Assembly (NCBI GenBank): GCA_964403045.1
Contig: CAYOEP010000001.1
Coordinates: 9,009 to 73,008, forward strand
Direction: 5' to 3'
Length of the DNA stretch: 64,000 nucleotides
DNA from: an uncultured Candidatus Saccharibacteria bacterium
Lineage (GTDB): Bacteria > Patescibacteriota > Minisyncoccia > UBA6257 > 2-01-FULL-56-20
The notes under the pieces were generated by a model. It ran no database searches and was not told where the DNA came from. It worked only from the letters and a program-made list of their open reading frames with translations. Both the position numbers and the translations under genes were made by a program. Of this stretch, positions 2,755 through 26,137 are shown in pieces; position 1 is the stretch's first letter, and each line of letters starts with the position of its first letter.

Positions 2755-4497
2755 TTAGGAACCTTCGTCTGACTCTTGTAGCTCTTGAGCTTGCTCCATA
2801 AGCTGTTTGGGGTCGGTGGTAATAATTTTGTCTTCAAAGTAGGAAGCGATGATTTGAATGGCAACATGGTTTTGCCCCGCAAAGAAAAGGCCGGTCCCCC
2901 GCGGGGCTTCGAGGAGATAATTTTTCTCTGCTTCTGTGAGGTTGAATGCTTTCCCTACCACATCAATAGTCGCGGGCGATTGGCGGAGGAGAAGCTGGAT
3001 AGTGGAGTTGGTGATAATGGGGCGCCCGTATTTCGAGTTCAGGAAATCTTCCACGTCTTGGGTGATGGTGGTAATGCCAAGATAGTACTTTCGCCCCCTC
3101 TTAACAAGACCAAAGAGGAAGCGCGCGCCTTCCTCGTGCTGCATCATTGTCCACGCCTCGTCCACGATGAGGATACGCTTCGCGCGCCGCGCTCTGACGA
3201 GATTCCAGATAAAATTCAGTACAATATACATCGCGATGGGGCGGAGCTCATCTTCGAGATCGCGGATAGAGAAGATAATAAAGCGATTGTTTACGTCGAT
3301 GTTGGTGGGCTTGTTGAGGAATCCCGAAAAGCTCCCCTTGGTGTATTTGTAGAGGCGGTCAGCCATCCCCCGTCCCCCTTCGAGGTTGCGGAGAATAGTT
3401 TCGAGATCTTCGAGGAGCGGCGGCTCCGCTCCGGTGAAGTCTTCTCCTGGTACGATTTCGCGGGAGGCATATGCCTCGGTGATGGCGCGGTCGAGGATAG
3501 AATCCTCCTCGCTACTTAGTGAGCCGCCCAGCATTAGCTTGAGAAGTCCTGCGATATTGACAATATGCGAGCGGAGTACATCAGACGGATCTTCGCCTTC
3601 TGGCACGACGGGAACGTCGAAGGGATTAATGTGCTCTTCTGAGGAAAGGGAAATGTTGAAGTAGCTCCCCCCGAACGCCTCCGCGAGCGGCTTGTACTCA
3701 TTTTCAGGGTCAATCACGATGACTTCCGTGCCCATCATTAGGGAGCGGAGGATTTCCAGTTTGGTGGCATAGGACTTTCCTGCGCCGGATCGCGCGAACA
3801 CGACTTGGTTGGCATTTTCCAGCGAGAAACGGTCAAAGATAATAAGGCTGTTGTTCTGGCGGTTGATGCCGTACATAATGCCCTCGTCGGAGGTAAGGTT
3901 CTCTGAAACGAAAGGAAAGAAGGAAGAAAGCGGCCCCGAGTTCATTGGGTTCGTGATGGAAATTTTGTCTTCTACCATAGGCAGGATGGTGGAAAATCCC
4001 TCGAGCTGCTGGAAGAGTGCTGGCTTGAAGTAGGTAAGCTTCGCGTCCATCAGTGAAAGGACTTTGCTTTCCAGCTTCGCAAGCTCCTCTTTGCTGTCGG
4101 CATAGATTGTAAGGTAAACACCTACGTTGAAAAGTTTTTCTTGTGATTGCTGGAGAAGGTCGCGGAGATTTTCCACATCGTGAAGCGCAGTTTCGAGCAA
4201 GGGGTCCCGCACTTCCCCCTTTTCCTCTTTGTCTTCAAGCTGGGATTGTATCTGCGCGGTCTTTTTTCGGAGCTTCTTGAGCGCGATGCCGGTGTCGACA
4301 GGTGAGATATGGATGGAAATATCGAAAAGATTGGGGAGGTTGATGAGGGGCGCGAACCAGCCGGTGGAAAGATAGCGGGGATAAGAAAGGATATAGAGTG
4401 TTTTCGCAAACTTATCTCCTATCTTGAGATAGTTCGACTCGACTTTGATGCCTGAGGAGGCAATGATTTTTTTGATACTGTCAAACCTTTCTGACAT
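2755..4497 (-). CDS. virB4: VirB4/TrbE/CagE-family T4SS ATPase, C-terminal ATPase part
   Basis: Walker A FARSGAGKSYATK and Walker B ILIVDEAW. Upstream is the conserved PRYLSTGWFAPLINLPNLFDISIHISP region typical of VirB4. Confidence 0.85.
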   Translation of the reverse strand: MSERFDSIKKIIASSGIKVESNYLKIGDKFAKTLYILSYPRYLSTGWFAPLINLPNLFDISIHISPVDTGIALKKLRKKTAQIQSQLEDKEEKGEVRDPLLETALHDVENLRDLLQQSQEKLFNVGVYLTIYADSKEELAKLESKVLSLMDAKLTYFKPALFQQLEGFSTILPMVEDKISITNPMNSGPLSSFFPFVSENLTSDEGIMYGINRQNNSLIIFDRFSLENANQVVFARSGAGKSYATKLEILRSLMMGTEVIVIDPENEYKPLAEAFGGSYFNISLSSEEHINPFDVPVVPEGEDPSDVLRSHIVNIAGLLKLMLGGSLSSEEDSILDRAITEAYASREIVPGEDFTGAEPPLLEDLETILRNLEGGRGMADRLYKYTKGSFSGFLNKPTNIDVNNRFIIFSIRDLEDELRPIAMYIVLNFIWNLVRARRAKRILIVDEAWTMMQHEEGARFLFGLVKRGRKYYLGITTITQDVEDFLNSKYGRPIITNSTIQLLLRQSPATIDVVGKAFNLTEAEKNYLLEAPRGTGLFFAGQNHVAIQIIASYFEDKIITTDPKQLMEQAQELQESDEGS

Positions 4498-4502
4498 AGG
4501 CG

Positions 4503-5225
4503 CTAGGATGTTGCATTGTCGCTGGGAGCATTTTCCTCTCGTGTTTCTTGGGGTAGCTCGAGATCTTCCCGCTCCACAGTTTCCGGATTGTAGAAGTTGT
4601 AGAAAAGCTCTACGATTTCTTGGTCGTTGAGCACCTTTGTTTCCAACCCCATCGCACGGATTCCTCCCTCCACCTGTGCAACCCGCTGATTGAGCTGGTC
4701 GAGGTTGCGTGCAAAATTTTTCTCTGCCTCTTCTTGGATTTTCTTTTCCCGTTCCTTCTTACTCTCTTTTTTGAAGAATGGGAAAATGCCGCCAAATTTC
4801 GCGCCCGCCCCGCTGGCTAGCGAAACGGAGCCGGAGAACGTAACCACGACGAAGAATTTTTTCTCCATAATTTCATTTTCAGCGACGAACGCTTTCACAA
4901 ACTCGCGGTACTCGGTAAGCTGGTCGCGCAGGAGCTCGGACGGCTCTTCCTCAATACGCTTGTCGATAGTGGCAATGTAATGGTCGATATTGAGCTTGCG
5001 GGAGTGCACAATGATCTGCAGGGGAAAATCGATTCCATTGAGAAAATTTTGAAAGCTGTGCGTGAGGATGTTCTGCTCGTCAACTGATTTAAGAGAGAAA
5101 TTAACTCCGGAGACCATAATAATTTTCAAGAGGCGCCCGTCTTTTGCAAGAATTGCACCTTCCTTGAGGTCCTTGATAGGGATAAGGTCTTGCGTGTTGC
5201 CAAAATTCGCAGTGCTGGAGCTCAT
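4503..5225 (-). CDS. virB4: VirB4 N-terminal domain encoded as a separate ORF (split gene, or frameshift/pseudogene)
   Basis: IPIKDLKEGAILAKDGRLLKIIMVSGVNFSLKSVDEQ... matches the conserved start of VirB4/TrbE. It stops at TAG 4503-4505; the next ORF starts 5 nt downstream in a different frame. Confidence 0.6.
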   Translation of the reverse strand: MSSSTANFGNTQDLIPIKDLKEGAILAKDGRLLKIIMVSGVNFSLKSVDEQNILTHSFQNFLNGIDFPLQIIVHSRKLNIDHYIATIDKRIEEEPSELLRDQLTEYREFVKAFVAENEIMEKKFFVVVTFSGSVSLASGAGAKFGGIFPFFKKESKKEREKKIQEEAEKNFARNLDQLNQRVAQVEGGIRAMGLETKVLNDQEIVELFYNFYNPETVEREDLELPQETREENAPSDNATS

Positions 5226-5290
5226 AGAGATGGTAAGATTTTTGCTGCTTTAATTATATCCTGAGGGGGGCAAAGAGAAAAATGTTGTGG

Positions 5291-5794
5291 TTAATAATCT
5301 ACCCGCTTCGCGATCTTGCGTTGTCCTGAAATGTCTTCGAGAACTTCATAGCGCTCTTGCTGGCTTGCTGCCGCCTGCTTCTTTTGGGAGGAAGATTGCA
5401 GTTTGTGCCACGCCTGCTTGAGGGCAGTGCCGTAGATAATTTGGTCGAGGGCAATCCCGCTTTTCTTAGCTTCCTCCCGCAGTGCATCTTTCGATTTTTG
5501 CATATGGGGCTGATCCGGCTTCCACACGTAGGTTTGTGGGTTCCAGATGAAGAAGAACGCGGAGAGGAGGACTTTTGGGAGTTCGCGGCCATTGATTTTG
5601 ATGAAAGCAAGGGCGCCGGCAGCAGAAACGAGCACAAGGGAAATCATAAACCATGTCCCCATATTGCCGAGGAAAAAGAAGAGGAAAAACGAAATCACGC
5701 CCGCAGAGCCCACGTAGAGGAACTGCTTGAGCGTAAAAGGTCCGATGATTTTGTCTTCGGTTTCTATGAACTGGGGAACTTGGAATTGCGCCAT
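5291..5794 (-). CDS. PrgI-family (VirB3-analog) small membrane protein
   Basis: The N-terminus FQVPQFIETEDKIIGPFTLKQFLYVGSAGVISFFLFFFLG followed by a second TM is typical of PrgI-like proteins of Gram-positive-type T4SS. Confidence 0.6.
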   Translation of the reverse strand: MAQFQVPQFIETEDKIIGPFTLKQFLYVGSAGVISFFLFFFLGNMGTWFMISLVLVSAAGALAFIKINGRELPKVLLSAFFFIWNPQTYVWKPDQPHMQKSKDALREEAKKSGIALDQIIYGTALKQAWHKLQSSSQKKQAAASQQERYEVLEDISGQRKIAKRVDY

Positions 5795-5875
5795 AGCTTT
5801 GCTACCAGTATACCGCAGAATGGCCTGCCGCTACACTCTCGTCTCGCGGCTCTTAGGAGCGCTTTTGGGGAGATG

Positions 5876-6898
5876 TTATTTATCGGAAAGCTTTACTTTT
5901 TTGAGATGGGTGGTGTCTACTACCACACGGGGCGGGGTGGTAGCGCGCGGCGGTGGAGGCGGCGGAGGAGGAAGCGTGCCGCGCGCCTCTTTCTGCTGAG
6001 GGCGCGGAGGCGCTTGGGGCGGTGGAGATTGCGCGGAGGACGTGCCAATTTCAACGTGGGCAGGGCGGATATGGACGGTGGCAGACTGGATAGTAGAAGG
6101 AGCAGAGAAATCCTTTTTCTTCTCGAGAACATTTGATTTTACGGAGAGCCCTTTCTTGATCGGGGCGGCATCGCCGCGCTGGTAGAGCATATGCGGGGCT
6201 CGCACGGGAGGTTGCTGTGCGGGGCGGTGCGGTTGCGGCGGTGCGCTTGGCACAGGCGGGTGCGGGGATGCAGGCGGAGGGGAAGGATGAGAAACTGCCG
6301 CCGGCTTGGGAGTTGGCGGCTTGGGGCGAGGCGCAACAGGGGCTTGAGGCTTATGGATAACTACGCGGGGAGTGGAAATGGTGACTTCCTGCTGAGGAGG
6401 CTGCGGAGGTGCCTTTAGCGGAGGAGGGGCAGATTTATGCGAAGAGGTTGGTTGAGGAGGCGCGGAAGGAGGAGCTGGCTGTGCCGCTATTGCTTTTTTA
6501 GGGGGAAGCGTGGGGGGCGGTGTTTTTTTTTCTGGCTCCTGCGTTTCTTCTTCGTGGGGATGTGGGAGCGGCGCGTATACCTTGTCGAGCTCGTCGCGAA
6601 TGCCTTGGAAGATTCGATTCTCGAGGGAATTTGCAATACTTTCAGCAGTTTTGGGGTCAATCGAACTCTCTTGAGTAATAAGATGCGCTGCTTCTTCGGG
6701 ATGGAGAAAGCCGAGCAGCACGAGACCTGTCGCGCTCGCGATGGCAGGAACTTTTTCGGAGGGTATATGATGTTGCTCGGCAATTCGCGAAATTGTTTCC
6801 GCTATTTGAGGAGAGAAAATTAAGTCCTGAAGGAACTTGGGCAGGGTAAGAAATCGCTTGCGCGCCTGCTGAGTTGTAGGAATTGGAATGGCTGCCAT
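5876..6898 (-). CDS. Proline-rich low-complexity protein (hypothetical, T4SS-associated)
   Basis: Long PPxP/PQPP tracts and a poly-P run (PPPPPPPP). A structured N-terminal ~110 aa precedes the low-complexity region. Confidence 0.5.
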   Translation of the reverse strand: MAAIPIPTTQQARKRFLTLPKFLQDLIFSPQIAETISRIAEQHHIPSEKVPAIASATGLVLLGFLHPEEAAHLITQESSIDPKTAESIANSLENRIFQGIRDELDKVYAPLPHPHEEETQEPEKKTPPPTLPPKKAIAAQPAPPSAPPQPTSSHKSAPPPLKAPPQPPQQEVTISTPRVVIHKPQAPVAPRPKPPTPKPAAVSHPSPPPASPHPPVPSAPPQPHRPAQQPPVRAPHMLYQRGDAAPIKKGLSVKSNVLEKKKDFSAPSTIQSATVHIRPAHVEIGTSSAQSPPPQAPPRPQQKEARGTLPPPPPPPPRATTPPRVVVDTTHLKKVKLSDK

Positions 6899-6918
6899 AA
6901 GGAGTTAATAGGAGTTAA

Positions 6919-9171
6919 TTATGACGACGGATGTTCTTCGCTTGTGACGTTGCCCTTTTCATCAAAGGTGGTGCGAGAACGTACATTCCTCGGCGCCTCT
7001 TCAAGGTTTTCTTTGTCCACCGGCCTTCCCGACGCATCGTAGAGGACCACTTTTTCTTTTGTTGGTTCTGGGGATTTCTTCTCAGCCGAAGGCGTGCCGC
7101 CTTTCAGGAAAATCTCCAGCTCTTTCTCTCCCCGGATGCCAAGGATATTAAGCGCAGCGTTGCTGTTGAACCAGCGGCGGTTTTGCGGGCTGAAGTGCTC
7201 CGGCTTGAGCCCGATATCTTGAGCAGTCTTCTGGTAGGCGCCAAGCGCGTTGTTTTTAGCGAGTTCTTTAAAGAATTCCGACAAATTGTGCGGCGAGAAT
7301 CCCTTCGCAATGCCCAGTATAATTTCTGCCCGGAGAGAATGCAGACCAGCAGCATCCAGTCCATATGGAGTTTTGCCCTTTTTGATATCTTCCTCGCTGA
7401 CGGAAAAGATCTTTGAGAGAGCTTCCGGGCTTGCGGCCTTGAGAGCTTTCTCCTTCTTTTCTTTGAGTTTTTGAATTTCTTCTGCAGGGGCGCCGCGTTT
7501 TTCGGCGGCTTCGAGTTCTTGTTTTGCTTCCACGAGAGCAACGCCGGACTTTCCGCGAAGTTCTTCAAATGTCTTGGCACGGTGGAAGCGCTTAAACTTC
7601 CCTGCATTCTCTTTCGAGAGTAATTTCTCGGCTCCTTGTACTTCATTGAGTCGCCCCGCCTTATTGATGAGCTCCAGCATTGCAATTTGCTCGGGGGTGC
7701 TTTTTGCTGCGTGCACTGATTTGATCATCTGGTCTACGCTCATCTTCTTCTCAAGGCGTGCCTTTTCTGCATCTACGAGCTTCTCTCCGTGGCTCCGGGC
7801 GATCGTTTCTAACCCTCTCCCTGCTCTCTTTGTAAGTCTGCCAACGACAGGCACACTGTGAAGTGTTTTAATCCACCCCTCTGCTGCCTCCTTGTTCTGA
7901 AGTTGTTCAGTGATTTTCTGACCTCGTTCTGTTCGCAACGGCGCAGTGGCTATTCTCCCCATGCCTCTCCCGATGCCTCGCGCTCCGCGCGCCGCTCCCA
8001 TGCCCATAAACCTTCCGCCTTTCTTCGCCCATGCCATTGCCGTTCCTGCTCCTGCAATAGAAAGCCGTTGTGCTACTACAAGTCCTCCCCATATAAGACC
8101 AACGACTACCGCAGATTGCAATCCTGCTTTCAGAATATGGGCGAAAGTCTCTGTTATGAACTGAACTATGCCTTTATAGGAATCGCCTTTCGTTGCTGCA
8201 TCGACGTAAGGCTCTGTTGCAACTCCCGCCATTGCTGCAACCCATAAAAAGAAAAGCATAATTGGCGCGAAGATGGTCCACTTGATGAATACCGACCACC
8301 ATTCACTCCAGTATTTTCTCGTAGTTGGAAAGACCCAAAGTACCCAGATAAGTGGCATGATAATAAGAAGAATAGAAAGCACTACATACCGTATGAGGAG
8401 CATTATCCCAATTGCCCCAACGACTACCGATGTCAGAGCAAGTGCAACGGTCATGAATCCGAGCACGACGATAACATAAAATACTCCTTCCGATTGCGCT
8501 GTTTCCGCGAATACCGATTTTAACTCATTAGCGGCTTGTTTATCTAAATGCCCGGAGCCCGGCTCATTTTCCGGCGTAAAAAACCGCTGGGGATTCAAGG
8601 CCCCCATAATCCTTATGGATAAGCCATCCGGTCCATTGAATCCCTTATCGATGATATATGAGGTAAAAGAATCTGCGGTCCCGATAATGGGCCCTACGAT
8701 CACGAGACTGAAGTTGACGAGAAGCGCGGCGATGATGAGCTTTGCGAAGGCTTTCTTGATGCCGTATTCTTGGACACGAAGAATAGTTGCAACAGCGATG
8801 ACAATTAGGATTGCAGCGAAGCCAAGGTTTGCGATAGAAAGTGATGCCTGAAAACCGTTTTCAACAGTTAGATTGTTATTGAGAATATTCTTGCTTACTT
8901 CGAGAATGAGGTCGATAAAGAAGAATTCCACGTTGAGGATGAACGCGAAAAATGTCGCTATTGCTGAGGCGAGCATTCCGACCACATAGCCGAAGAACCA
9001 TTGGAGGGCGCTCTCAAAAGAAGCTCTCGCGGGCAAGGGAGAAGAAATTCCTACGAATGTTGCAACGGCAAGGAGCAGAAATAGGAAGGGGACTAAGGGG
9101 CGTTTCTTGAATTTTGGACGTACCTGCACAATGGTCAAAACCCTTCGCTTTTTTGATGGTTGTATTGCCAT
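6919..9171 (-). CDS. VirB6/TrbL-like polytopic membrane protein with long cytoplasmic C-terminal extension
   Basis: At least 7 TM helices in the N-terminal 400 aa, followed by a Gly/Arg-rich segment (GMGAARGARGIGRGMGR) and a helical, charged C-terminal tail. It lies immediately upstream of the virB4 block. Confidence 0.55.
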   Translation of the reverse strand: MAIQPSKKRRVLTIVQVRPKFKKRPLVPFLFLLLAVATFVGISSPLPARASFESALQWFFGYVVGMLASAIATFFAFILNVEFFFIDLILEVSKNILNNNLTVENGFQASLSIANLGFAAILIVIAVATILRVQEYGIKKAFAKLIIAALLVNFSLVIVGPIIGTADSFTSYIIDKGFNGPDGLSIRIMGALNPQRFFTPENEPGSGHLDKQAANELKSVFAETAQSEGVFYVIVVLGFMTVALALTSVVVGAIGIMLLIRYVVLSILLIIMPLIWVLWVFPTTRKYWSEWWSVFIKWTIFAPIMLFFLWVAAMAGVATEPYVDAATKGDSYKGIVQFITETFAHILKAGLQSAVVVGLIWGGLVVAQRLSIAGAGTAMAWAKKGGRFMGMGAARGARGIGRGMGRIATAPLRTERGQKITEQLQNKEAAEGWIKTLHSVPVVGRLTKRAGRGLETIARSHGEKLVDAEKARLEKKMSVDQMIKSVHAAKSTPEQIAMLELINKAGRLNEVQGAEKLLSKENAGKFKRFHRAKTFEELRGKSGVALVEAKQELEAAEKRGAPAEEIQKLKEKKEKALKAASPEALSKIFSVSEEDIKKGKTPYGLDAAGLHSLRAEIILGIAKGFSPHNLSEFFKELAKNNALGAYQKTAQDIGLKPEHFSPQNRRWFNSNAALNILGIRGEKELEIFLKGGTPSAEKKSPEPTKEKVVLYDASGRPVDKENLEEAPRNVRSRTTFDEKGNVTSEEHPSS

Positions 9172-9180
9172 TACCTCTTT

Positions 9181-10932
9181 TTAGAGAATTCCTTTTCTTA
9201 TGATTTCATTGAGCCTAGCTTTCGCTACAGACTTCACAAGATCAATTATTGTTTTCATTATCAGCTCTGAATTTTGCCCTACCGTGTTTGCTGTCTTTTG
9301 AATTCTTTCTTGGGCAACTTCTTGAGAGAGGGCTTCGACGACGAATTTCGCAGGTGTAGTATTTTTCCATTCATCGCAAAGTTTAACTGCACATGTATTA
9401 GGAACTTCAGAAGTTTTACAGTCCAAAGTTCCCTCTATGTAATCTTCTCCATAGTCTACCTTCGGATCATCGCCCTTGCCAATATATGCTCTATGAGAAG
9501 AAACGCACACACGAGTAGGGCGAAATCCGTTTCCCGATTCGGCGTCGGATTTCTCTGCTTCTTGCTTTTGCGACGCCCTCAGACCAACTTTTTCCTTCAT
9601 TGTAACAAGAGCCCCAAAAATGTTATTCTGCGGTTTCAGCATTTCACCGTAAGCGACCCACCCCCCCGTTTCGAAGCTTCGGTAAAAGTCTTTTACGTTA
9701 CTCACTACGTCATCTAATGTACACTCTACGCCTTCTTCTGGGGGAACATTAGGAAGCGGAGTCGCAGCAATAGTGAGGAGTGGACCAAAGGAATTGCACA
9801 GGAAAGGCGCGCTTTCTGCAACAACTTCACCCGCCGCGCTCTTTGCTGCCTTTTTGAGAAATCCTTTCCAGTCAGTGACAAATTTCGGTTTTTTCCCGCC
9901 TCTAACCCACGCAAGCGTTTGCCTTGCAATGCCATTAATTATCTTTGACTTGGCACTCTCTAGTAATTCTTCGCCTATTACATCCAAAATCATTTGAGCT
10001 ATGTTGCCTGGGTCAAACACAATATCTCCGAGTCCTAAGAAGGCATGTGCTGTGGGGATAGTCATAAACCCCTTTATAAAAGCAATGAAATGACTTTCCT
10101 CATGCTTCTGCTTGAGCAAGGAAGAAGGGTTCAGGGCAGAATGTAGCTCTTGGGAAAGTTGGTGCGATAGATTCTGTAGTTCTTTTTTCTGGACGTTGAA
10201 GACAAGAAGGGACTTTAGAGGATCAGTTGAATTGACGAGCGTGGAAAGTTGCTTTATTTGGGCAATCAAAAGAACAAATTGCTTGTGGAAAGAAGAGAAT
10301 AGCTCAGGCGCATGCAGCTCTAATACTTCCTGGAGCATCTTCTCTAGCATGAGATTTGTAGCTATGGAAAGGGTTCCTGCTTCCTCCTTGTTGGCAGCAA
10401 TATCGGTAAGATTTTTGATAGCACGCGTATATTTGTTGAAAAACCCCTCAAGACGCTCAAGATAGCCAGATGTATCTGCGGACGGATCTATAATTGCCTG
10501 GGAAGCAATTTTCTCTGCCTTGCGTCGAAGCAACTGCAATTCTTGCTTTATTTCGGAAACTCGATCTGGCGTGAGAATGTCCGTAGAGTTTGTTTGAGCG
10601 AGATTCAATTGCTGCAGAATCTGCTCTTTGCTAAGCTTATTGGCGTCTTTCTCTTTGAGGAAAAGAGAAACTTTGTGTAAATCAATTGCAGTAATTTCTT
10701 TGATAACAGCGTCGGAAAACGCTTCAGTGAGGGTAAAGGGTTCGGAGGAAAGGGTTGCTGGGGGGATAGCTTCGGTGCCGATAGCATTGACAGGGACAGT
10801 CGTCTGGACGTCCTGCGGCGGCGCGGAGGAGTGCGCAGAGAATGAAGAAGAGAAAAAGAACGAGAAAGAGCCCGTCGCTGTTGCTACGACAAGGAATGTG
10901 GCGGCAAGCGTTCTGAACGATGGATGCTCCAT
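9181..10932 (-). CDS. Large secreted Cys-containing protein, first gene of the T4SS-like operon (hypothetical)
   Basis: Signal peptide (MEHPSFRTLAATFLVVATATGSFSFFF), 583 aa, several Cys pairs near the C-terminus. Confidence 0.5.
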   Translation of the reverse strand: MEHPSFRTLAATFLVVATATGSFSFFFSSSFSAHSSAPPQDVQTTVPVNAIGTEAIPPATLSSEPFTLTEAFSDAVIKEITAIDLHKVSLFLKEKDANKLSKEQILQQLNLAQTNSTDILTPDRVSEIKQELQLLRRKAEKIASQAIIDPSADTSGYLERLEGFFNKYTRAIKNLTDIAANKEEAGTLSIATNLMLEKMLQEVLELHAPELFSSFHKQFVLLIAQIKQLSTLVNSTDPLKSLLVFNVQKKELQNLSHQLSQELHSALNPSSLLKQKHEESHFIAFIKGFMTIPTAHAFLGLGDIVFDPGNIAQMILDVIGEELLESAKSKIINGIARQTLAWVRGGKKPKFVTDWKGFLKKAAKSAAGEVVAESAPFLCNSFGPLLTIAATPLPNVPPEEGVECTLDDVVSNVKDFYRSFETGGWVAYGEMLKPQNNIFGALVTMKEKVGLRASQKQEAEKSDAESGNGFRPTRVCVSSHRAYIGKGDDPKVDYGEDYIEGTLDCKTSEVPNTCAVKLCDEWKNTTPAKFVVEALSQEVAQERIQKTANTVGQNSELIMKTIIDLVKSVAKARLNEIIRKGIL

Positions 10933-11880: not shown

Positions 11881-12924
11881 ATGCCAAGTATTAGTACAGC
11901 TTCTACAATTGCAAAGAACATCCAGGAAAGCAAGGCGTTGGTGGGAAAAGCGCTTTTTCTCTTGTGCATTGCGGTAGTGCAAGGAGTGCTATGGTATAGC
12001 GCTGACAGCAGGAAGGGAATTCTTGGCGGTCCCGTGGAAGTGCAGAAAATTCTTGCTGCAGATATTGCCCTACCCCGCGCGGTGCTCTCCGATGTCCCTT
12101 TTCTCCGCGAGGAGAAAGCACGGGATGCTGCATTGGCGGCGCAGGGGCAACTCCTCCCGTCCAGCGCCGAGGAAAGTGCCGCACTCCGCGCGACAGGGAA
12201 TCCTCTAGGGGTGCTCGCAGGCTCTCCCGGTGTGGTTATCTACCATGTGAAGAAGGGCGACACGCTTTCTGGGATCGCGAGTCGGTTTGGAATTTCCCTA
12301 CGGACGGTGGTGGCAGCAAATCCTGAGGTGCGCGCCCGCGCGCTCCACATCGGGCAGTCACTCTACATTTTGCCAGTTGCCGGTGTGGTCTACACAGTAC
12401 TTCCCGGCGACACGCTTGCGAGTATTGCGAAAAAGTTTGACGTTACCGTAAAAGAACTGCGGCAATACAACCACACGCTTGAAAGCGAGGGGTTGCGCCC
12501 CGGGATAAAGCTTGCAATCCCTGGTGTCGTGCCTGAAATAAAGGCGGACAGATCCTATGCAAAAGCGCGGCGCTACTTCGTGCAGCCCGCCCAAGGACTG
12601 AACTGGGGAAAGCTCCATCCTAAGAATGCGGTAGACATTGCAAATGCGTGCGGCACGGAAGTGGATGCAGCGGCTGAAGGGCTCGTGGTAGATATAGGAA
12701 GGAAGGGATGGAACAGCGGCTATGGCCACTATGTGACTATTGAGCATCCCAATGGGGCAAAGACGAAATATGGTCACTTGGGAGAAATTTCTGTTGCCAT
12801 AGGAGACTATGTTGCCCAGGGGCAAAGAATTGCCGAGATGGGCAATACAGGAAACGTGCACGGGCCCACTGGCTGCCATCTTCACTTTGAAGTTTACGGG
12901 ATGGCGAATCCCTTTGTGCGCTAG
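11881..12924 (+). CDS. LysM-domain M23 family peptidase (membrane-anchored)
   Basis: Two LysM repeats (YHVKKGDTLSGIASRFGIS...; YTVLPGDTLASIAKKFDVTVKELRQYN) and an M23 catalytic region (HYVTIEHPNGAKTKYGHL...GNTGNVHGPTGCHLHFEV). Confidence 0.85.
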   Translation: MPSISTASTIAKNIQESKALVGKALFLLCIAVVQGVLWYSADSRKGILGGPVEVQKILAADIALPRAVLSDVPFLREEKARDAALAAQGQLLPSSAEESAALRATGNPLGVLAGSPGVVIYHVKKGDTLSGIASRFGISLRTVVAANPEVRARALHIGQSLYILPVAGVVYTVLPGDTLASIAKKFDVTVKELRQYNHTLESEGLRPGIKLAIPGVVPEIKADRSYAKARRYFVQPAQGLNWGKLHPKNAVDIANACGTEVDAAAEGLVVDIGRKGWNSGYGHYVTIEHPNGAKTKYGHLGEISVAIGDYVAQGQRIAEMGNTGNVHGPTGCHLHFEVYGMANPFVR

Positions 12925-14465
12925 GACAATACTGGCTCGCCCGCGCGAAGCCGGTAGCTGAACGCTTCGGCGAGGTGAGTTTCGGTTACATGAGGAGATG
13001 CTTCCAGGTCCGCAATTGTGCGGGCCACTTTTAATATTCGGTAGTAGCTCCGCGGGGAGAGATTCGCGCGTGCCGCTTGCTCAAGAAACCGAGTCGCCGC
13101 GTCGGTGAGTGCGACGAACCGCGTTGTTTCCTTGCTGCTCATCTCTGCGTTTGTGCAGATAGGAAGGGAGGCAAACCGCGCCCGTTGCAGCTCCCGCGCC
13201 TGCTGCACCTGCACCCGCGCTTCTGCGGAAGTTATCGCCTCGTCGCTGGTGTTGCGGAGCGTTGCCAGAGGAACGCGGGCGACAAATATTTGGAGGTCAA
13301 TGCGGTCAAGCAGCGGCCCGGAAACCTTCTTTTGGTAGCGCGCCACTTCATGGGCAGAACAGGTGCATTCCTTCTGGGTGTCTCCGTAGAAGCCGCAGGG
13401 ACACGGATTCATAGCCGCAAGAAGACTGAAGCGTGCGGGGAAGCGCACGGTGCTCGCGGCACGCGATACCACCACATTCCCCTCTTCGAGTGGCTGGCGG
13501 AGCGCTTCGAGTACATTCCTGGGAAATTCGGGGAGCTCGTCGAGGAAAAGGACGCCCCGGTGTGCAAGGCTAATCTCGCCGGGACGGGGATTGGTGCCGC
13601 CGCCAATCATTGCCGCAGGTGAGGCAGTATAGTGAGGTGCACGGAAGGGGCGGGTGCGCACCACGTCGCCGCCTGCGAGCCCCGCCGCGCTGTATACCTT
13701 TGTCACTTCTATTGATTCCTGGGGAGTAAGTGGCGGAAGGATGCCAACGAGCGCCCGCGCCAGCATGCTTTTGCCCATCCCCGGGGGTCCTGCCATGAGA
13801 AGATTGTGGTTTCCCGCGGCGGCGATGAGAAGTGCACGTTTTGCGCTCTCCTGCCCTTTAATTTCCGCGAGGTCGGGAATTTTGTTTTCTTGGGAAGGGC
13901 CTCCGGTACTACGGGACTGCACTTCGCGCGGCGCAGATCTTCCCTCGAGGATATCGATAAGCTCGCGGAGGCTTGCGGCCGGGACAATCATAATGTCCTG
14001 CACGAGCACTGCCTCCCCCGCGTTCTCTTGCGGGAGAATAAGTTTGTCGAACTTGAGGGTTGCCGCAAGCTCTGCGATGCTGAGCGCTCCCCGCACGGGG
14101 CGGATACTGCCATCAAGGCCAAGTTCTCCGAGAAAGAGAATGCGCTCCTCGCGCTTCGGTTTGAGCTGACCGGAGGCAAGCAGGTAACCGATTGCGATGG
14201 CGAGGTCATAGTGCGACCCTGCCTTCTTCACGGAAGCAGGGGCGAGGTTCACGGTGATTTTTCGATTGTCTCTGTTGGGAGGCTTCGCGCCAACGTGCTT
14301 CAACGCGGAGCTGACGCGCTCCCGCGCTTCGTTCACTGCCTTGTCTGCGAGCCCCACGATGTTGAACGCATGCAGACCTACATTGAGGTCCACTTCTACT
14401 TCTACCAGTGCTGCGTCTACTCCTTCCAGCTCGGCCGCGTAGACTTTTGCAAACTTTTTCTGCAT
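12921..14465 (-). CDS. comM: YifB/ComM family Mg-chelatase-like AAA+ ATPase
   Basis: Characteristic N-terminus (AELEGVDAALVEVEVDLNVGLHAFNIVGLADKAVNEARERV), Walker A LLMAGPPGMGKSMLA and a C-terminal Mg-chelatase ChlI-like region. Confidence 0.85.
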   Translation of the reverse strand: MQKKFAKVYAAELEGVDAALVEVEVDLNVGLHAFNIVGLADKAVNEARERVSSALKHVGAKPPNRDNRKITVNLAPASVKKAGSHYDLAIAIGYLLASGQLKPKREERILFLGELGLDGSIRPVRGALSIAELAATLKFDKLILPQENAGEAVLVQDIMIVPAASLRELIDILEGRSAPREVQSRSTGGPSQENKIPDLAEIKGQESAKRALLIAAAGNHNLLMAGPPGMGKSMLARALVGILPPLTPQESIEVTKVYSAAGLAGGDVVRTRPFRAPHYTASPAAMIGGGTNPRPGEISLAHRGVLFLDELPEFPRNVLEALRQPLEEGNVVVSRAASTVRFPARFSLLAAMNPCPCGFYGDTQKECTCSAHEVARYQKKVSGPLLDRIDLQIFVARVPLATLRNTSDEAITSAEARVQVQQARELQRARFASLPICTNAEMSSKETTRFVALTDAATRFLEQAARANLSPRSYYRILKVARTIADLEASPHVTETHLAEAFSYRLRAGEPVLS

Positions 14466-14534
14466 TGGTGCAATCAGTTGCCCCCTCCCGTGCTATTATA
14501 AGCGAAAGATGCCGTTTTGCCTTAAGCTGGAAAT

Positions 14535-15464
14535 TTGATGAAGAAGAAACTCAGCGTTGCGGCCTTGTTGGTCATTGCCATTGCTGGACTGGTTAGCTTA
14601 GTGCTGCGTCTGCAGTTATTTTCAAAAAGGAGCGCGGAGACAATTCCTCCTCATCGAGCAGAAAGTTCACAGAAAAACAGCAGCAGAGGAATGCAGGTCA
14701 GCATACAGGATCTGCAGAAAAATGCCCGTGCGGCAGCTCGACGGGGGGCTGCATATGTAATGTCGTACCGAGGGCTGCTGAAAGACCCCGGCATTCTATG
14801 GGCGTTGCATGTGGTAAATGAAAAATACTGCCGCGACCCCCAGATCGATGCCGCGCTCAAGAGGCGCTTTCACAAAGAATTTGACAGCCACCCTCTCTAC
14901 TATGCGTATGAACGGCTTTTTGATGAAAGCGCGGTTCACGATTTTCATTACGGAGATTTAAAAAATTGGGAAGCGTACTTCGACGATATTATCCTCCCTG
15001 CGCTCTACTGCGATGTCCGCAGGCCGCCTGAGGATGTGGTGAAAAAAATTTTTTCAATGGAAGGGAAATTTGGCTACTGGCTTACCCATCACTTCCTTGC
15101 GTTGCTCTTTCTGAGAGATCGGGGATGTCTCAAGGAACGCGCCAATGAGATCGAGCGAGATATTGCCGCCGCGGCAGAAAAAATTCGCCTCGAGGAGAGG
15201 CGTGCATCCTTAGTGGATGATGTGTATGCGGAACGGATTGCGATGCTGCTCTACGGAGGGTTTCGGCGATTGGTGGACGCAGACTGGATAGCAAAACTTG
15301 TGGGGCGGCAACGTGCTTCAGGAAGATGGGAAGGAGGCATTCCAGGAATTGGTATTGGAGAAAATCCTCACACTACTGCTCTCGCTGTATGGGCGCTTGC
15401 TGATTACAGCAGATCGTGCCCTTTTGGCGAAAGGCAAGAGCAGAAAGAAGAGGCAGGCCGGTGA
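14535..15464 (+). CDS. Membrane-anchored hypothetical protein
   Basis: N-terminal TM (LSVAALLVIAIAGLVSLVL). No motif recognised by eye. Confidence 0.4.
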   Translation: MMKKKLSVAALLVIAIAGLVSLVLRLQLFSKRSAETIPPHRAESSQKNSSRGMQVSIQDLQKNARAAARRGAAYVMSYRGLLKDPGILWALHVVNEKYCRDPQIDAALKRRFHKEFDSHPLYYAYERLFDESAVHDFHYGDLKNWEAYFDDIILPALYCDVRRPPEDVVKKIFSMEGKFGYWLTHHFLALLFLRDRGCLKERANEIERDIAAAAEKIRLEERRASLVDDVYAERIAMLLYGGFRRLVDADWIAKLVGRQRASGRWEGGIPGIGIGENPHTTALAVWALADYSRSCPFGERQEQKEEAGR

Positions 15465-15473: not shown

Positions 15474-15827
15474 TTATTTCGCGGAAGGTTTTTGCTCCTT
15501 CGCTTTGCAGGTACGGCAGAAGTCTGACTCTGGGGCAACATTCAGAACCTCTTCTTCAATCTCGGCGCCGCACTTCGCGCAGGTGCCGTAGGTACCGTCT
15601 TGAATTTTGCCGAGAGCGATGCGGATGTGGTTGAGGCGTTCGGTAAGGACTGCATCGATGCCAAGCCGAGTACTTTCCTCTTCTGCTTCATCCGCCTCTT
15701 CCTCGAAGCTGTCCACATCATCTCCGAAGTCCATCTTTTGTTTTCCTTCTTCGATCTCCTTTAAAATTGCGCGCTCTTCCTCCTCGAGTTTGCGCCGGTA
15801 GAAATCAATTTTTTCTTTACTCAGCAT
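15474..15827 (-). CDS. dksA: DksA/TraR-family C4 zinc-finger protein
   Basis: A coiled-coil N-terminus with an acidic tip (DD..D) and C-terminal CAKCGAEI...CRTC. Confidence 0.75.
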   Translation of the reverse strand: MLSKEKIDFYRRKLEEEERAILKEIEEGKQKMDFGDDVDSFEEEADEAEEESTRLGIDAVLTERLNHIRIALGKIQDGTYGTCAKCGAEIEEEVLNVAPESDFCRTCKAKEQKPSAK

Positions 15828-16083
15828 GTCTATAATGGTAGCAGAAAATTTTGCAGCCGCAACTTTTTTTACCGGCCGGGGAAACAGGGAAACTTGAACT
15901 GTTGCAGAAGAGATTTAAAGAAGAGAGCGGTGAGCAAGATATCTTGACATAAGTTGCAATTTATTTTCTTATTTTCCTCTCTAGTCTAGGCAAGAGAGAA
16001 GGCTTTGTCGCAAAATATATGTGTCGCAAAATGTAAGCGCCCTATTCCCTTTCTTCTGATGAAGAAGCTATTTTGAGGGTGTC

Positions 16084-16272
16084 CTGTGGAAAAAATGTTT
16101 GTCGACAAACATTTTTTCCACAGATATCCGAATGTTTGTCGACAAACATTTGTTATTTTCTTTCAGCATATGTTTGCTGACAAACACTTGCTAGGAAAGA
16201 ATAATAATGTTTGTCGACAAACATTGTGTTGTATAAAATGTGGATGTTTGTCGACAAACACTTTTTCCACAG
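16084..16272. repeat. Array of five copies of the 18-bp perfect palindrome ATGTTTGTCGACAAACAT at 37-38 bp spacing
   Basis: Copies at 16095-16112, 16132-16149, 16170-16187 (degenerate TGCTGA), 16207-16224 and 16244-16261. Copy 1 is embedded in a 40-bp perfect palindrome (16084-16123). Copy 5 shares the TTTTTCCACAG arm. Confidence 0.9.
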
Positions 16273-16277: not shown

Positions 16278-16727
16278 GTGAGTGGTAATCAAGATAGAAA
16301 CCAGCAGATTGGCGCGATTGGGGAAGAGGTCGCGAGTGATTATCTCAGAAACCATGGATTCCAGATACTCGCGCGGAATGTGAGGAATAAGTTTGGGGAG
16401 CTTGATATCGTGGCACGGGAAAACAAAGAGCTGGTAGTTGTAGAGGTAAAAACGCTTCGCGCTACTGAGGGAGGGTTGCTGCCCGAAGACAATCTCACGC
16501 ACCGAAAGAGGATGCGCCTTGCGCGGTCTGCGCAGGCATTTGTTGCAACCCGTGGGGATCTTGTGGCAGAGCAGGGATGGAGAATTGACGTCATATCTAT
16601 TTTATTGTCTAATATTTTTCGAGAGGAACTTTTGAGGGACGGCGGGGAGATATTGACAAAAAGTGGGTATTATTGCGTTGTTAGACACTATCGGAACGCG
16701 GTAGGCGCGGGAGGGATGCTTCCCTAA
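16278..16727 (+). CDS. yraN: YraN/UPF0102-family endonuclease-like protein
   Basis: IGAIGEEVASDYLRNHGFQILARNVRNKFGELDIVARENKELVVVEVKTLRA matches the YraN pattern. The start is uncertain; GTG at 16278 was chosen because the upstream part of the ORF is the palindrome array. Confidence 0.65.
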   Translation: MSGNQDRNQQIGAIGEEVASDYLRNHGFQILARNVRNKFGELDIVARENKELVVVEVKTLRATEGGLLPEDNLTHRKRMRLARSAQAFVATRGDLVAEQGWRIDVISILLSNIFREELLRDGGEILTKSGYYCVVRHYRNAVGAGGMLP

Positions 16728-16826: not shown

Positions 16827-18212
16827 ATGAATTTAAAAGAGCTTTCTCGGGCAGTGGAACAGATTGCCGAGGAGAAGGGACTGAAGCCGGAGGTGGTGTT
16901 AGAAACGGTGGAACACGCCATCGCCGCTGCCTACAAAAAAGAATACGGCCGCCGCGGTGAGATTATCCGCGCGAAGCTTGACCCGGAAACGGGCGAGGTA
17001 AAGTTTTGGCAGGTGAAGCTGGTAGTAGATCCGACCGAAGTGCGCATAGAGGACGAGGCGGAGGAAGAAAATACTCCTGCCCAGAAAGGAAAAGAACTGG
17101 CGCAAAAGGAAAGTCGCGCCAAGGAGACGCGCGCGGGAGCGGAGTCGCAGCAAGGCGAAGAAGAAAAAAAGCTCCCGCGGTTCCATCCGGAGCGGCACAT
17201 TTTCCTCGAGGAAGCAAGGAAGATAAAGCCAGATGCGCAAGTGGGAGATGAACTCATCTTTCCACTGGAGCCAAAGGAAGATTTTGGCCGCATTGCGGCA
17301 CAGGCGGCGAAGCAGGTGATCCTCCAAAAACTTCGCGAGTCCGAGCGGCAGTCTATTCTTGAAGAGTGGCGCGACAAAGAGGGGCAGATTGTGAGCGGCG
17401 TGGTGCAGCGGTTCGAGCGCGGCCATGTGTATGTGGACTTGGGAAGGACGGTAGGCGTAATGTTTGCCAATGAGTCGGTGCCGGGCGAGCACTACCGCAC
17501 CGGGGAGCGGTTGCGGTTTCTTGTACTTGCGGTGCAGGAGGAAACGCGTACACCGGGAATCGTGCTCTCGCGGTCCCACCCGGATTTTGTGGCAAAGTTG
17601 TTCGAGATGGAGGTTCCCGAACTTGCCGACGGCGTGTGTGAGATTAAGGCAATTGCCCGTGAGCCGGGGAGCAGGACGAAGATTGCTGTCGCATCGTATG
17701 AAGAGGGAGTGGATCCGGTGGGTGCCTGCGTGGGACAGCGCGGAACACGCGTGATGGCGGTCAACAATGAGCTTGGCCAGGAGAAAATTGACATTGTGGA
17801 ATGGGTGGAAGACCCCGCGCAGTTCGTGGCGAACGCGCTATCTCCCGCAAAAGTTACTTCGGTGGAGGTATTGCCTCGCAGGGAAGCAAGAGTTTACGTG
17901 CCGGAGGACCAGTTGAGCCTTGCGATCGGACGCGGAGGACAGAACGTGCGGCTCGCGGCGAAGCTCACAGGATGGAAAATTGACGTGCGCTCTCAGACAC
18001 GCCCGGAGGAAGTACAGGAAGGGGGAATTGCGGAGGCGAGAAGTGAAAGTGTGCCTGAGGAAGAAGAGCAAGCGGCGGAGCAGAATGCACAAGAGACGGG
18101 CGGAGAGGAAGAACATGGAGGTACCGAAGCGGAGGATGTTTCCACGGCATCTGCCACCGAGGAAAAAGTTCAAGAGAATGCGTTGCAGGAGGCGCCGGGC
18201 GACAAAAAATAA
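16827..18212 (+). CDS. nusA: Transcription termination/antitermination factor NusA
   Basis: NusA N-terminal domain, S1 and KH regions (RGHVYVDLG...; [11 protein letters not shown]; [11 protein letters not shown]) and an acidic C-terminal tail. Confidence 0.9.
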
Positions 18213-18287: not shown

Positions 18288-20303
18288 ATGGCAGCAGTGT
18301 TCTCAAATATATGGTTTCCGGTGGCGAGCGGGGCGTTCGCGGTAGCTGCGGCAATAGCACTCGCTTCCCGCGTGCTTTCCTACAAGAAGGGAAGCGCAAA
18401 AATGGAGGAAATTGCCCGGGCGATCCAAGAGGGCGCGCGGGCGTATCTGCGGCGGCAGTACCTCACCATTGGGGTAGTTGCAGTGATAATTGCGATAGTC
18501 ATTGGTATTTTTCTGGGCGTGGTGACGATGGCAGGATTTCTCGTGGGGGCAGTTGCATCAGGCCTTGCTGGATATATTGGCATGAGTGTATCGGTGAGGG
18601 CGAATGTGAAAACGGCAGAGGCAGCGCGCAAAGGACTCCCCACCGCGCTCCGGATAGCGTTTTTCGGTGGCTCAGTGACGGGGTTGCTGGTTGCAGGACT
18701 TGCACTCCTCTCAGTAGCGGTGTTCTATCTGCTGACGCATGATGTGCATGCGCTGGTGGGGCTGGGATTTGGCGGAAGTTTAATTTCGGTGTTCGCGCGG
18801 CTCGGCGGCGGCATTTTCACAAAGGGCGCGGACGTAGGTGCTGATTTAGTAGGAAAAGTGGAAGCGGGAATTCCTGAAGACGATCCCCGCAACCCCGCAG
18901 TGATTGCGGACAATGTAGGCGATAATGTCGGCGATTGCGCGGGGATGGCAGCGGATCTATTCGAGACCTATGCAGTCACTTCGGTGGCGGCAATGATACT
19001 GGGCAATTTGCTTTTCCCTGAAATGACACAAGCGGTTCTGTTGCCGCTGATGGTGGGCGGCATTGCGGTTATTGCTTCAGTGCTGGGGCTTTTCTTTGTG
19101 CGTCTTGGCACCCGGCAGTCCATTATGGGTGCGCTCTACAAGGGGCTTGCCGCCGCGGGCGTACTCTCGTTGATTGGCTTTTGGTTCTTGGCGCAGAGCT
19201 ATGAGGGAAACGGCGCAGCGTTTATGTTCCATAAACTTTTCTACTCGCTTCTAGTAGGCGTACTGGTTACCGCGGGTATTGTGCTCGTGACAGAATACTA
19301 TACTTCAAAGTCGTTTCGCCCCGTACGCGCTATTGCGCGTTCCTCTGTAAGTGGGCATGCGACGAACATTATCACTGGTCTTTCTGTGGGAATGGAGGCT
19401 ACAGCATTGCCAGTGGTAATCATCGTTGCGGGAATTTTGGTTGCATTCGCAATCGCAGGATTATATGGAATTGCACTTGCAGTGATGAGCATGCTGTCGC
19501 TCACAGGAATGATAGTTGCTGTTGATGCATTTGGCCCTATTACTGATAACGCGGGCGGCATTGCGGAAATGGCAGAGCTTCCGAAAGAAGTACGGCAAGT
19601 TACTGACGCACTGGATGCAGTTGGCAACACCACGAAGGCAATTACAAAAGGGTACGCGATTGGGTCCGCAGGACTTGCTGCGGTGGTACTCTTCGCGTCG
19701 TACGTGCAGGAGCTGCAGGGAACGCTTTCCACAGGGGGCACGAATGTGGCATTTCCACTAGGAGACCCCAAAATTATCGCCGGCTTGTTCCTCGGCGGGC
19801 TTATTCCCTATCTCTTCGCGGGACTTTCCATGCGCGCGGTGGGGAAGGTTGCAGAAAGCGTAGTAGCGGAGGTGCGCCGCCAGTTCCGCGAGACGCCGGG
19901 ACTAATGGAGGGAAAAACAAAACCGAACTATTCCCGTGCGGTGGACTTAGTTACCGGGGCGGCAATTCGTGAAATGATTATCCCCGCGCTGCTGCCGGTG
20001 GTGATTCCCGTGGTTGTAGGACTAACGCTCGGCGCGGCAGTGTTAGGGGGGTTGCTGGTTGGATCTATTGTCACAGGAATCTTCGTTGCAATTTCAATGA
20101 CCACCGGCGGCGCTGCTTGGGATAACGCCAAGAAATATATTGAGGAAGGACAGCACGGCGGCAAAGGCTCGGAGGCGCACAAGGCGGCGGTAACCGGCGA
20201 CACAGTAGGTGACCCCTACAAGGACACGGCTGGCCCTGCGATCAATCCATTGATTAAGGTAATCAATATTGTTGCGCTTTTGCTTATTCCTTTCTTGTTG
20301 TAG
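18288..20303 (+). CDS. hppA: Membrane-bound H+(or Na+)-translocating pyrophosphatase
   Basis: About 16 TM helices, with [18 protein letters not shown] and [20 protein letters not shown] motifs. Confidence 0.9.
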
Positions 20304-21084
20304 TGTAGGGTGATAATTTATCTTCCTCACCTTTCTTCTTTCCGTACGCGTAGTCCGCGGCCATCCAGCTTAACTCAAAGATTGCACGCTGGGTATCGGC
20401 GACTGCTTGGTCTTCAATAATGACTGCGATGTAGGGCTCCCGGAATGTCACGTAGAATACTTTATTGTCGTAGATATTCATCTCAAGTGAGAATTTGAAT
20501 GTTTCGTGGGGGACGAATTTTATTCTGGTAACTGCCATATCATAGCTAGCTATATATGCTTTCGCTACCGGGGTGTCTGGGACGATTGCTCTTTCCCAGA
20601 TCTTTCGCCTTCTTCGTTCAGCAGCATACCAGATAGCGTACTTTTTAATTGTTCTCAAAAGGCCATCGTTGTCCGAATAAGCCAAAATTTCTGTTTTAGC
20701 AGTAAGTGAATCGTTAAAGACTTCTTTAATTCCTTCTATGCCTTGGAAAAAACGGATCCCCGGCTTGCCCACCCCGAGATTATAGAGGGAGTAGAGGAGC
20801 GGCAGGCCGCTTTTTGCGAGCTCTACACTCCGCTCGAGATGCTTTAGCATTTGCTCTGCCTTCTCTGGCGGCGAGGGGACGTAGGTGAGCTTTTTCTCTT
20901 CCGGGAGATGGTAAATGAGTTGTTTTTTCTCGAGCTTCTTCAGGACATTGTAGAGATCCCCGCGTTTGAGGTTGACCTTTTGGAGTAGTTGTGCAGGAGT
21001 GGATTTCCCGCCCTGGAGGAGCGTCTCATATACCTTAATTTCTTTCGGGGAAAGCCCTATGGTTTTCAGGACATTTTCAAGCAT
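20284..21084 (-). CDS. TrmB-family transcriptional regulator
   Basis: N-terminal wHTH ([52 protein letters not shown]) and a C-terminal TrmB-type domain. Its 3' end overlaps the hppA stop by 20 bp (convergent). Confidence 0.7.
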
Positions 21085-21120
21085 AGGTACAAGAAAAGTA
21101 TATACATACCAAGATATATT

Positions 21121-21249
21121 TGTCAAGTATTAGTGACAATTTGTGAGAGAATTTTGATAAAACCCTCAGAATAAGGGAAAAATTGTCATAGTACTGTGAC
21201 AAGATTTTTGTTACAAATACTTGACAAAAATATTGGCCAGGTATATAAT
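21121..21249. promoter_or_regulatory. Divergent control region: TGACAA/TTGTCA inverted repeats plus consensus promoter TTGACA-N17-TATAAT
   Basis: TTGTCAAGTATT (21121-21132) is the reverse complement of AATACTTGACAA (21213-21224). TTGTCATAGTACTGTGACAA (21184-21203) is a near-palindrome. The -35 TTGACA is at 21221-21226 and the -10 TATAAT at 21244-21249, upstream of the SD AAGGAGG and the ATG at 21287. Confidence 0.6.
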
Positions 21250-26061: not shown

Positions 26062-26137
26062 GCGCCTGTAGCTCAACGGTGAGAGCAGCCGTCTTATAAG
26101 CGGCAGGTTCCTGGTTCGAATCCAGGCAGGCGCACCA
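26062..26137 (+). tRNA. tRNA-Ile (anticodon TAT)
   Basis: Acceptor GCGCCTG/CAGGCGC, D-stem GCTC/GAGC, anticodon stem GCCGT/GCGGC with loop CTTATAA (TAT at positions 34-36), T-loop TTCGAAT, discriminator A, CCA encoded. Confidence 0.65.

Follow-up and report, generated by a model that had tools for sequence, protein, structure and literature searches.

An array of 18-bp palindromes located between a DksA-like gene and yraN, in a 64-kb stretch of DNA from an uncultured Candidatus Saccharibacteria bacterium (the whole of which, 64,000 nucleotides, is referred to here as the window), is best read, with moderate confidence, as an origin-proximal cluster of variant parS sites that would also overlap the yraN promoter region. 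This reading builds on the sequence relation of the sites to parS, on the architecture of the array and on its conservation close to the origin as a single cluster per genome, as well as on a natural ParB/parS pair that has the same half-site. From these observations we infer a ParB of the candidate phyla radiation (CPR, Patescibacteria) as the binder, together with everything that would follow from its binding.

In the window, the palindrome ATGTTTGTCGACAAACAT (M1) occurs four times exactly, once with a single mismatch and once with three mismatches, while 17 kb of extensions of the window contain no copy. The six matches compare with 0.04 expected, and six or more were obtained in 0 of 100 shuffles. 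Five copies are clustered at 16095-16261, with start-to-start distances of 37, 38, 37 and 37 bp, and the sixth lies within folD. Inverted arms of 29 nt, consisting of CTGTGGAAAAA plus the palindrome, enclose the array on both sides (16084-16112 and 16244-16272) and are 97 % complementary. The initial annotation, made from the window alone, had described five phased palindromes with an additional copy in folD, the location of the first copy inside a 40-bp perfect palindrome and two direct repeats upstream of the array, and all of these features were confirmed (Table 1). The additional copy is indeed in frame, in a weakly conserved FolD segment of normal length, and the alignment, which reveals no insertion, indicates that it arose by substitution with the length unchanged.

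Downstream of the array, yraN, which encodes a PD-(D/E)XK nuclease, starts 9 bp past the array end. Promoter-like hexamers overlap copies 3-5; one such pair, TTGTCG and TAAAAT separated by 17 bp at 16211-16239, is a consensus match only. At the position of copy 3, the close relative L002 carries an extra segment of approximately 135 bp between intact copies, and its array contains six copies versus five in the window. Elsewhere in the window, a tRNA-Ile gene with the anticodon TAT is found at 26062-26137.

Table 1. Coordinates of the array, its copies, the neighbouring genes and the related motifs in the window and in the loci compared with it
Feature	Locus	Position	Strand	Remarks
comM	window	12921-14465	-	beyond the dksA-like gene
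DksA/TraR-type zinc-finger gene	window	15474-15827	-	transcribed away from the array
Two TGTCGCAAAAT direct repeats (M3)	window	16006-16016, 16022-16032	+	
Whole array, 189 bp	window	16084-16272		includes the lineage-specific CTGTGGAAAAA / TTTTTCCACAG arms
TTTTCCACA, DnaA-box-like	window	16085-16093 (-), 16114-16122, 16263-16271		array arms
M1 copy 1, ATGTTTGTCGACAAACAT	window	16095-16112		core TGTTTGTCGACAAACA; centre of a 40-bp perfect palindrome, 16084-16123
M1 copy 2	window	16132-16149		exact
M1 copy 3	window	16170-16187		degenerate, ATGTTTGCTGACAAACAC, 3 mismatches
M1 copy 4	window	16207-16224		exact; overlaps promoter-like -35
M1 copy 5	window	16244-16261		1 mismatch; followed by CTTTTTCCACAG, the right arm of the 29-nt inverted repeat, to 16272
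yraN (UPF0102 nuclease)	window	16281-16727	+	GTG start at 16281 deduced from the alignment with L002
nusA	window	16827-18212		after yraN; followed by an H+-pyrophosphatase gene
folD	window	36658-37494		contains the sixth copy
Solitary M1 copy in folD	window	37356-37373		exact; in frame, ECLSTNI; approximately 40 kb from oriC
TGCCGGATT / AATCCGGCA motif	L032	1750-1850	-	
TGCCGGATT / AATCCGGCA motif	L006			
TGCCGGATT / AATCCGGCA motif	L004			
TGCCGGATT / AATCCGGCA motif	L003	800-815		
TGCCGGATT / AATCCGGCA motif	L142	9143-9276		
TGCCGGATT / AATCCGGCA motif	L143	9256-9342		
Tandem TGTTTGTCGATAAACA / TGTTTATCGACAAACA sites	L134	166-222		
Tandem TGTTTGTCGATAAACA / TGTTTATCGACAAACA sites	L148	3485-3542		
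Tandem TGTTTGTCGATAAACA / TGTTTATCGACAAACA sites	L149	6647-6704		

The 41 sites collected from seven CPR loci yield the consensus TGTTT-NN-CG-NN-AAACA, in which the dinucleotide at positions 6-7 is mostly GT, and in other sites AG, GC, GG, CG or TA. The invariant positions are exactly those held in common with canonical parS, TGTTTCACGTGAAACA (TGTTT-CA-CG-TG-AAACA), and only positions 6-7 and their mirror vary among the CPR sites. Compared with the strict parS consensus TGTTNCACGTGNAACA, 12 of 16 positions are identical, while positions 6, 7, 10 and 11 carry GT..AC or AG..CT instead of CA..TG, which keeps the frame of parS but departs from the strict consensus. The likeness extends to the flanks: at position -1, A, C, G and T account for 65, 0, 15 and 20 % of the CPR half-sites versus 60, 7, 13 and 19 % of 610 canonical half-sites, and at position -2 the share of A is 66 % in CPR versus 55 % in canonical parS, with C depleted in both. 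A half-site match to parS at six of eight positions has a chance probability of approximately 0.004, before allowing for the many comparable known motifs. The initial annotation had found the motif to match none of the operator consensuses that it considered (LexA, NrdR, HrcA, Rex, Fur, CodY and BirA) and had missed this resemblance; its proposal of a dimeric DNA-binding protein, on the other hand, agrees with the behaviour of the repeats. Hybrid pairs of half-sites make up 12 of the 41 sites, and since such hybrids would break a hairpin, the unit is made up of two half-sites that vary independently of each other, as is characteristic of a site for a dimeric protein. Canonical parS, searched for with up to three mismatches, was absent from approximately 95 kb near the origin in the window's genome and from the surroundings of dnaA in two other CPR genomes. 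A literature search returned no paper containing the motif, nor one on parS or ParB specificity in CPR bacteria.

The architecture of the array also has counterparts among parS loci. Metagenomes were scanned for two adjacent TGTTT-NN-CG-NN-AAACA sites with any central dinucleotides, which gave at least 120 loci. Among the 120 matches listed, 115 are tandem arrays of canonical parS, spaced mostly 35-40 bp apart (mode, 39 bp), and at least 72 of the canonical arrays immediately precede parA, in most cases with parB behind it. Phased parS arrays that repeat approximately every 3.5 helical turns are therefore common in nature, and the array of the window matches this arrangement. The constant phase of 37-38 bp that had been noted initially holds for the window, L002 and L032, but in other CPR genomes the sites are irregularly placed, 17-114 bp apart; the phasing of approximately 3.5 turns is thus not a conserved requirement, although it does correspond to the usual spacing of canonical parS arrays. 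The non-canonical arrays among the matches listed are L032 and L070, which are CPR loci with the usual synteny, L080, in which a CC/CA variant is located upstream of parAB, and L134, described below. None of the canonical-parS loci among the matches listed is close to the organism of the window, the best DnaA (L044) showing 44 % identity. The L044 locus is unusually dense, with fifteen canonical parS within approximately 1 kb (L044:1044-2027), roughly 1 kb upstream of dnaA.

The cluster occupies a conserved place in CPR genomes. A scan for the exact 18-mer in one genome per species, covering 185,579 species, returned only seven loci, six of which belong to Patescibacteria/CPR and lie in the same syntenic region (Parcubacteria, Paceibacterota, Saccharibacteria and one mislabelled contig, the latter being a near relative of the window). 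Every CPR locus contains a cluster of four to seven copies or near-copies, and the shared gene order consists of ComM and the DksA-like protein on one side of the cluster, and YraN, NusA, pyrophosphatase and ClpP on the other. The same synteny was found in further loci reached through NusA homologues and the metagenome scan. Records with the cluster include OZ246418.1, ERZ25039512 contig_54889, GCA_003695395.1 and GCA_024654525.1. Clusters occur once per genome where this could be checked, and in a complete Saccharibacteria chromosome this locus is the sole exact match to the 18-mer. The region upstream of yraN in relatives, which the initial annotation had named as a check, thus retains the array, and the spacers between copies are conserved between relatives rather than variable. 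In some Parcubacteria the cluster has degenerated, with just 0-2 degenerate sites in the gap, in two cases alongside a LAGLIDADG gene inserted there. In L003, comM, the dksA-like gene and yraN are gone from the locus, and the cluster and its companion motifs are still found beside nusA. This persistence, together with the functional-looking copy in the coding region of folD, would fit a site function that is independent of promoter position.

The LAGLIDADG genes in the gap between the DksA-like gene and yraN are free-standing homing-endonuclease genes (L144:9078-9494 and L147:8050-8502). The L147 gene is flanked by degenerate copies of the palindrome and L144 has no intact copies; a LAGLIDADG endonuclease gene may have invaded the array. 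In a further locus, a large serine recombinase gene (L004:3146-5572) abuts a truncated comM (276 aa versus approximately 510 aa at full length), which points to the integration of a mobile element into this gene.

The position of the array relative to the replication origin was established by extending the window leftward through exact-protein look-up. Approximately 3 kb to the left of the window start, there are jag, yidC, rnpA and rpmH, which are oriented toward the window, and dnaA-dnaN, oriented away from it. The cumulative GC skew reaches its minimum at the dnaA/rpmH boundary, which places the origin at dnaA, and rises monotonically through the array. The array is thus approximately 19 kb, and the folD copy approximately 40 kb, from the origin on the same replichore. 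In the L001 genome, the cluster lies approximately 23 kb from dnaA, with the same intervening KsgA and conjugation-type type IV secretion system (T4SS) cluster, and in at least eight genomes homologues of NusA and DnaA are encoded on contigs of identical length (shortest, 59.7 kb), taken as the same contig.

The T4SS cluster adjoins the jag-yidC-rnpA-rpmH/dnaA region in the window (426-10932) and in several Parcubacteria (L140:163-12016, L145:1-8124 and L146:1-8020), in which the arrangement is conserved. It is of the conjugation type, encodes a VirB4/TraG-like ATPase, TrbL-like, PrgI and TraC-like proteins and several pilins, and is transcribed against the direction of replication. The gaps between rpmH and dnaA measure 267 bp in L145 and 445 bp in L146. 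In L140, dnaA as called (13743-15248, 501 aa) reaches rpmH, but the recorded protein (P0121) has 454 aa, so that the actual spacer between rpmH and dnaA, presumably oriC, is approximately 140 bp longer than the gene call implies.

Besides the palindromes, the CPR gaps contain companion motifs. The M3 repeat TGTCGCAAAAT is shared by the gaps of loci ranging from Parcubacteria to Saccharibacteria. Two other elements are lacking in the window. One is an everted half-site (GACAAACA-N0-5-TGTTTGTC), found at the dksA-side edge of the cluster in L001, L003, L004, L005, L006, L032, L070 and L142-L144; where the half-site is different, as in L143 (TGTTTTAC), the everted form has changed along with the inverted sites. 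The other is a second conserved motif, TGCCGGATT / AATCCGGCA, which sometimes takes the form of a 20-bp palindrome (AATCCGGCAATTGCCGGATT); most CPR loci have two to five occurrences of it in the gap, and a remnant is present inside the L002 array.

Further support for a ParB-type site comes from outside CPR. In L134, a non-CPR locus of 61 % GC, two TGTTTATCGACAAACA sites are found between gidB and the N-terminus of a ParA/Soj gene, and in its relatives L148 and L149, which were reached through GidB homologues, the order is dnaN-dnaA / rnpA-yidC-gidB, two TGTTTGTCGATAAACA sites and parA-parB. The paired sites are 41-42 bp apart, the second being degenerate in L149, and canonical parS was absent from all three loci (61-65 % GC). 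The ParB of this lineage carries GLDR where 45 ParBs linked to canonical parS carry GKSR (K to L in 0 of 45 and S to D in 2 of 45), and GHAL in place of GHAR, in which the arginine is present in 45/45 canonical-linked proteins (R to L in none); these are near-invariant positions of the DNA-binding region of ParB. The three loci appear to represent an undescribed, naturally specificity-switched chromosomal ParB/parS pair that uses the CPR half-site TGTTTGTC, and by this precedent, drawn from sequence comparison, the ParB family can probably read that half-site.

In CPR DNA, signature regular expressions and an HMM built from 46 ParBs were used to search for ParB. No ParA/ParB-like gene was found in approximately 95 kb of the window's genome and nine other CPR loci of 8-21 kb, and none of the unannotated proteins of the window is ParB-like. 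The cultivated Saccharibacterium Southlakia epibionticum nevertheless encodes a ParA-type ATPase and a ParB/Spo0J protein (SEML1_0183 and SEML1_0184; PF02195 + PF17762), and its parAB scores as growth-defect/essential by Tn-seq (PMC10633639 supplement). This genome is rearranged and differs in synteny, with parAB at 180 kb, 180 kb from dnaA, and nusA at 488 kb.

Characterized ParB proteins act as CTP-dependent clamps that load at parS, spread, organize the origin for segregation and recruit SMC. By analogy, each 16-bp palindrome of the array (TGTTT-GT-CG-AC-AAACA) would be bound by a ParB-type helix-turn-helix dimer that at positions 6-7 no longer prefers the near-universal CA but GT or AG, and the array may serve as a centromere-like ParB-loading platform near oriC. 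Given that the sites fill the divergent promoter region and end just short of yraN, their occupancy would be expected to damp the transcription of both flanking units, yraN-nusA and dksA-comM. The evidence on the DNA side is coherent, and the identification of the sites as variant parS is held to be slightly better than an even bet. Several features fit it less neatly, namely the lack of adjacent parAB, the free positions 6-7, the everted half-site, which has no known role for ParB, the companion motifs TGTCGCAAAAT and TGCCGGATT, which resemble those of a complex promoter, and the degeneration of the cluster in some Parcubacteria. Most canonical tandem arrays abut parA and the CPR clusters do not, which counts against variant parS, as do the negative search for ParA and ParB in the CPR DNA covered and the distance of parAB from dnaA in S. 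epibionticum.

The foremost alternative, plausible but less likely, is an operator array for a CPR-specific dimeric repressor, distinct from ParB, of the divergent yraN-nusA and dksA-comM promoters. In its favour, the array occupies the promoter region, with the promoter-like hexamers at copies 3-5, and the flanking genes are functionally related: YraN and ComM are partners in natural transformation, forming a nuclease/helicase pair that processes the D-loop (bioRxiv 10.1101/2024.02.06.579203), and Saccharibacteria are naturally competent (PMC10633639). The motifs are moreover ordered (M3, M4, M2, M1), and the covariation of inverted and everted half-sites in L143 is of the kind that a dedicated transcription factor could require. 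However, a conserved regulator gene is absent from beside the array, a TrmB-like gene in the window (20284-21126) having no counterpart in the other loci, and the L003 cluster survives the loss of yraN, comM and the dksA-like gene. Five to seven sites are many for one promoter pair, and an exact copy lies deep in folD. The half-site does not recur near recA or at other promoters of the window, on which grounds a LexA or competence-regulon box was also rejected. Finally, with a repressor as binder, the agreement with parS in frame, flanks and spacing, as well as the proximity to the origin, would have to be coincidental.

Alternatively, the array could itself belong to the replication origin, or act as a DnaA-titrating or iteron-like locus, an iteron-like origin having been among the options of the initial annotation. 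Three DnaA-box-like TTTTCCACA elements flank copies 1 and 5 (six in the window versus 0.92 expected, the others at 4169, 10978 and 40792), L001 has a perfect TGTGGATAA beside its first site, and a long, AT-rich intergenic region separates the diverging genes. This reading is nevertheless very improbable, as the skew minimum lies at dnaA/rpmH, in no locus does the skew flip at the array and, in L001, L005 and L006, it is not mirrored across the cluster (for example, +0.02 versus +0.28), while only the window/L002 lineage and L001 have the DnaA-box-like arms. The array is a neighbour of the origin rather than the origin itself, and oriC was rejected on the basis of the GC-skew profiles and the location of dnaA.

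A function at the level of RNA or DNA structure, in the form of TIGR or CRISPR-like guides, attenuator or terminator hairpins of nusA, or cruciforms cut by YraN, is likewise given very little weight. The period of 37-38 bp is near the 36-nt TIGR unit, and TIGR systems do occur in CPR bacteria; they are defined, however, by two alternating repeats of 8-12 nt, 9-nt spacers and a Tas gene with a Nop domain (PMC12045711), whereas the array consists of one 18-bp palindrome with no repeat in mid-spacer, and its neighbours are DksA-like and YraN genes, with no Tas gene. A TIGR or CRISPR-like array was ruled out on this definition, the repeat units and the neighbouring genes. The region folds very strongly (z = -14.4), which is what any array of palindromes would give, and YraN is a nuclease. 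The hybrid sites break the pairing, the stems are without compensatory changes, and the conservation of spacers between relatives and the irregular spacing in other CPR genomes also speak against this reading. Rfam gave nothing at the gathering threshold and only generic sub-threshold hairpin matches (E up to 1); together with the hybrid half-sites, this result excluded an RNA structure or riboswitch. YraN has been reported to be a monomeric single-strand nuclease of relaxed specificity, which argues against a cruciform target and excludes the protein as a sequence-specific binder.

A REP or MITE-like palindrome, mobile or selfish, that landed here and in folD by chance, a possibility raised at the outset by the extra genic copy and in line with the inverted arms that bracket the array and the difference in copy number between the window and L002, is hardly credible: one syntenic cluster per genome excludes a dispersed repeat, the folD copy replaces sequence rather than adding to it, viral contigs scanned with both 16-mers gave isolated single matches at chance level, and MITE/REP elements were ruled out by the scan of the genome collection, the conserved synteny and the folD alignment.

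The interpretation of the array as variant parS may be extended into a broader and more tentative proposal, which is possible but doubtful. Patescibacteria may have replaced the CA core of parS by GT/AG and re-specified their ParB, with a single hub 20 kb from oriC in the ComM/YraN promoter region at which ParB would both mark the centromere and gate DNA-recombination genes; the same switch may have been made independently in a high-GC soil lineage through the changes in GKSR and GHAR. The parS site is regarded as one of the most conserved bacterial cis-elements, and genome-wide prediction uses its canonical consensus. If the proposal is true, searches for canonical parS miss the centromeres of a superphylum that makes up a large share of bacterial diversity, and ParB/parS specificity has switched naturally on a large scale, with the high-GC lineage as a second independent case. 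The location between comM and yraN points to a conceivable link between origin organization and the recombination genes of natural transformation, which is the one known route of genetic manipulation for these organisms. The hypothesis lends itself to direct testing, given that Saccharibacteria are genetically tractable and that ParAB is important for their fitness.

Among known systems, the sopC centromere of the F plasmid consists of 12 units of 43 bp, each with a 16-bp inverted repeat bound by a dimer of the ParB family. The CPR array resembles sopC and other plasmid centromeres in its regularly phased tandem inverted repeats, but sopC is plasmid-borne, unrelated in sequence and situated beside its own sopAB, whereas the CPR array is chromosomal and conserved across a superphylum. 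Few residue changes suffice to retune the half-site of the ParB family by one or two positions, as illustrated by ParB and Noc (parS versus the NBS, TATTTCCCGGGAAATA) and by the KorB operator TTTAGCSGCTAAA. The AG variant of the CPR site contains TTTAGCGCTAAA, which closely resembles the KorB operator. Noc, however, occurs only in Firmicutes and has dispersed sites, while KorB is carried by plasmids and binds a site with an odd central base. In Streptococcus pneumoniae, ParB at an origin-proximal parS has reportedly been shown experimentally to influence comCDE. Competence genes adjoin the site there, as comM and yraN adjoin the CPR array, although the pneumococcal site is single and canonical and the effect on transcription in CPR bacteria is presumptive.

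The pair of L134, L148 and L149 differs from the CPR array in that its only two sites abut parA-parB, its ParB has a changed recognition helix and its hosts are not CPR bacteria; it shares the TGTTTGTC half-site, the tandem arrangement and the location next to the origin region. Canonical parS, for its part, is strict at positions 6-7, where the CPR sites carry GT or AG, and others too, but never CA, and the CPR array is set apart by the absence of adjacent parAB, the accompanying everted half-site and a binder that is presumed. The two nevertheless have in common a 16-bp palindrome with identical positions 1-5, 8-9 and 12-16, a preference for A at -1 and -2, tandem arrays spaced by approximately 35-40 bp, a location near the origin, a low copy number per genome and tolerance inside genes.
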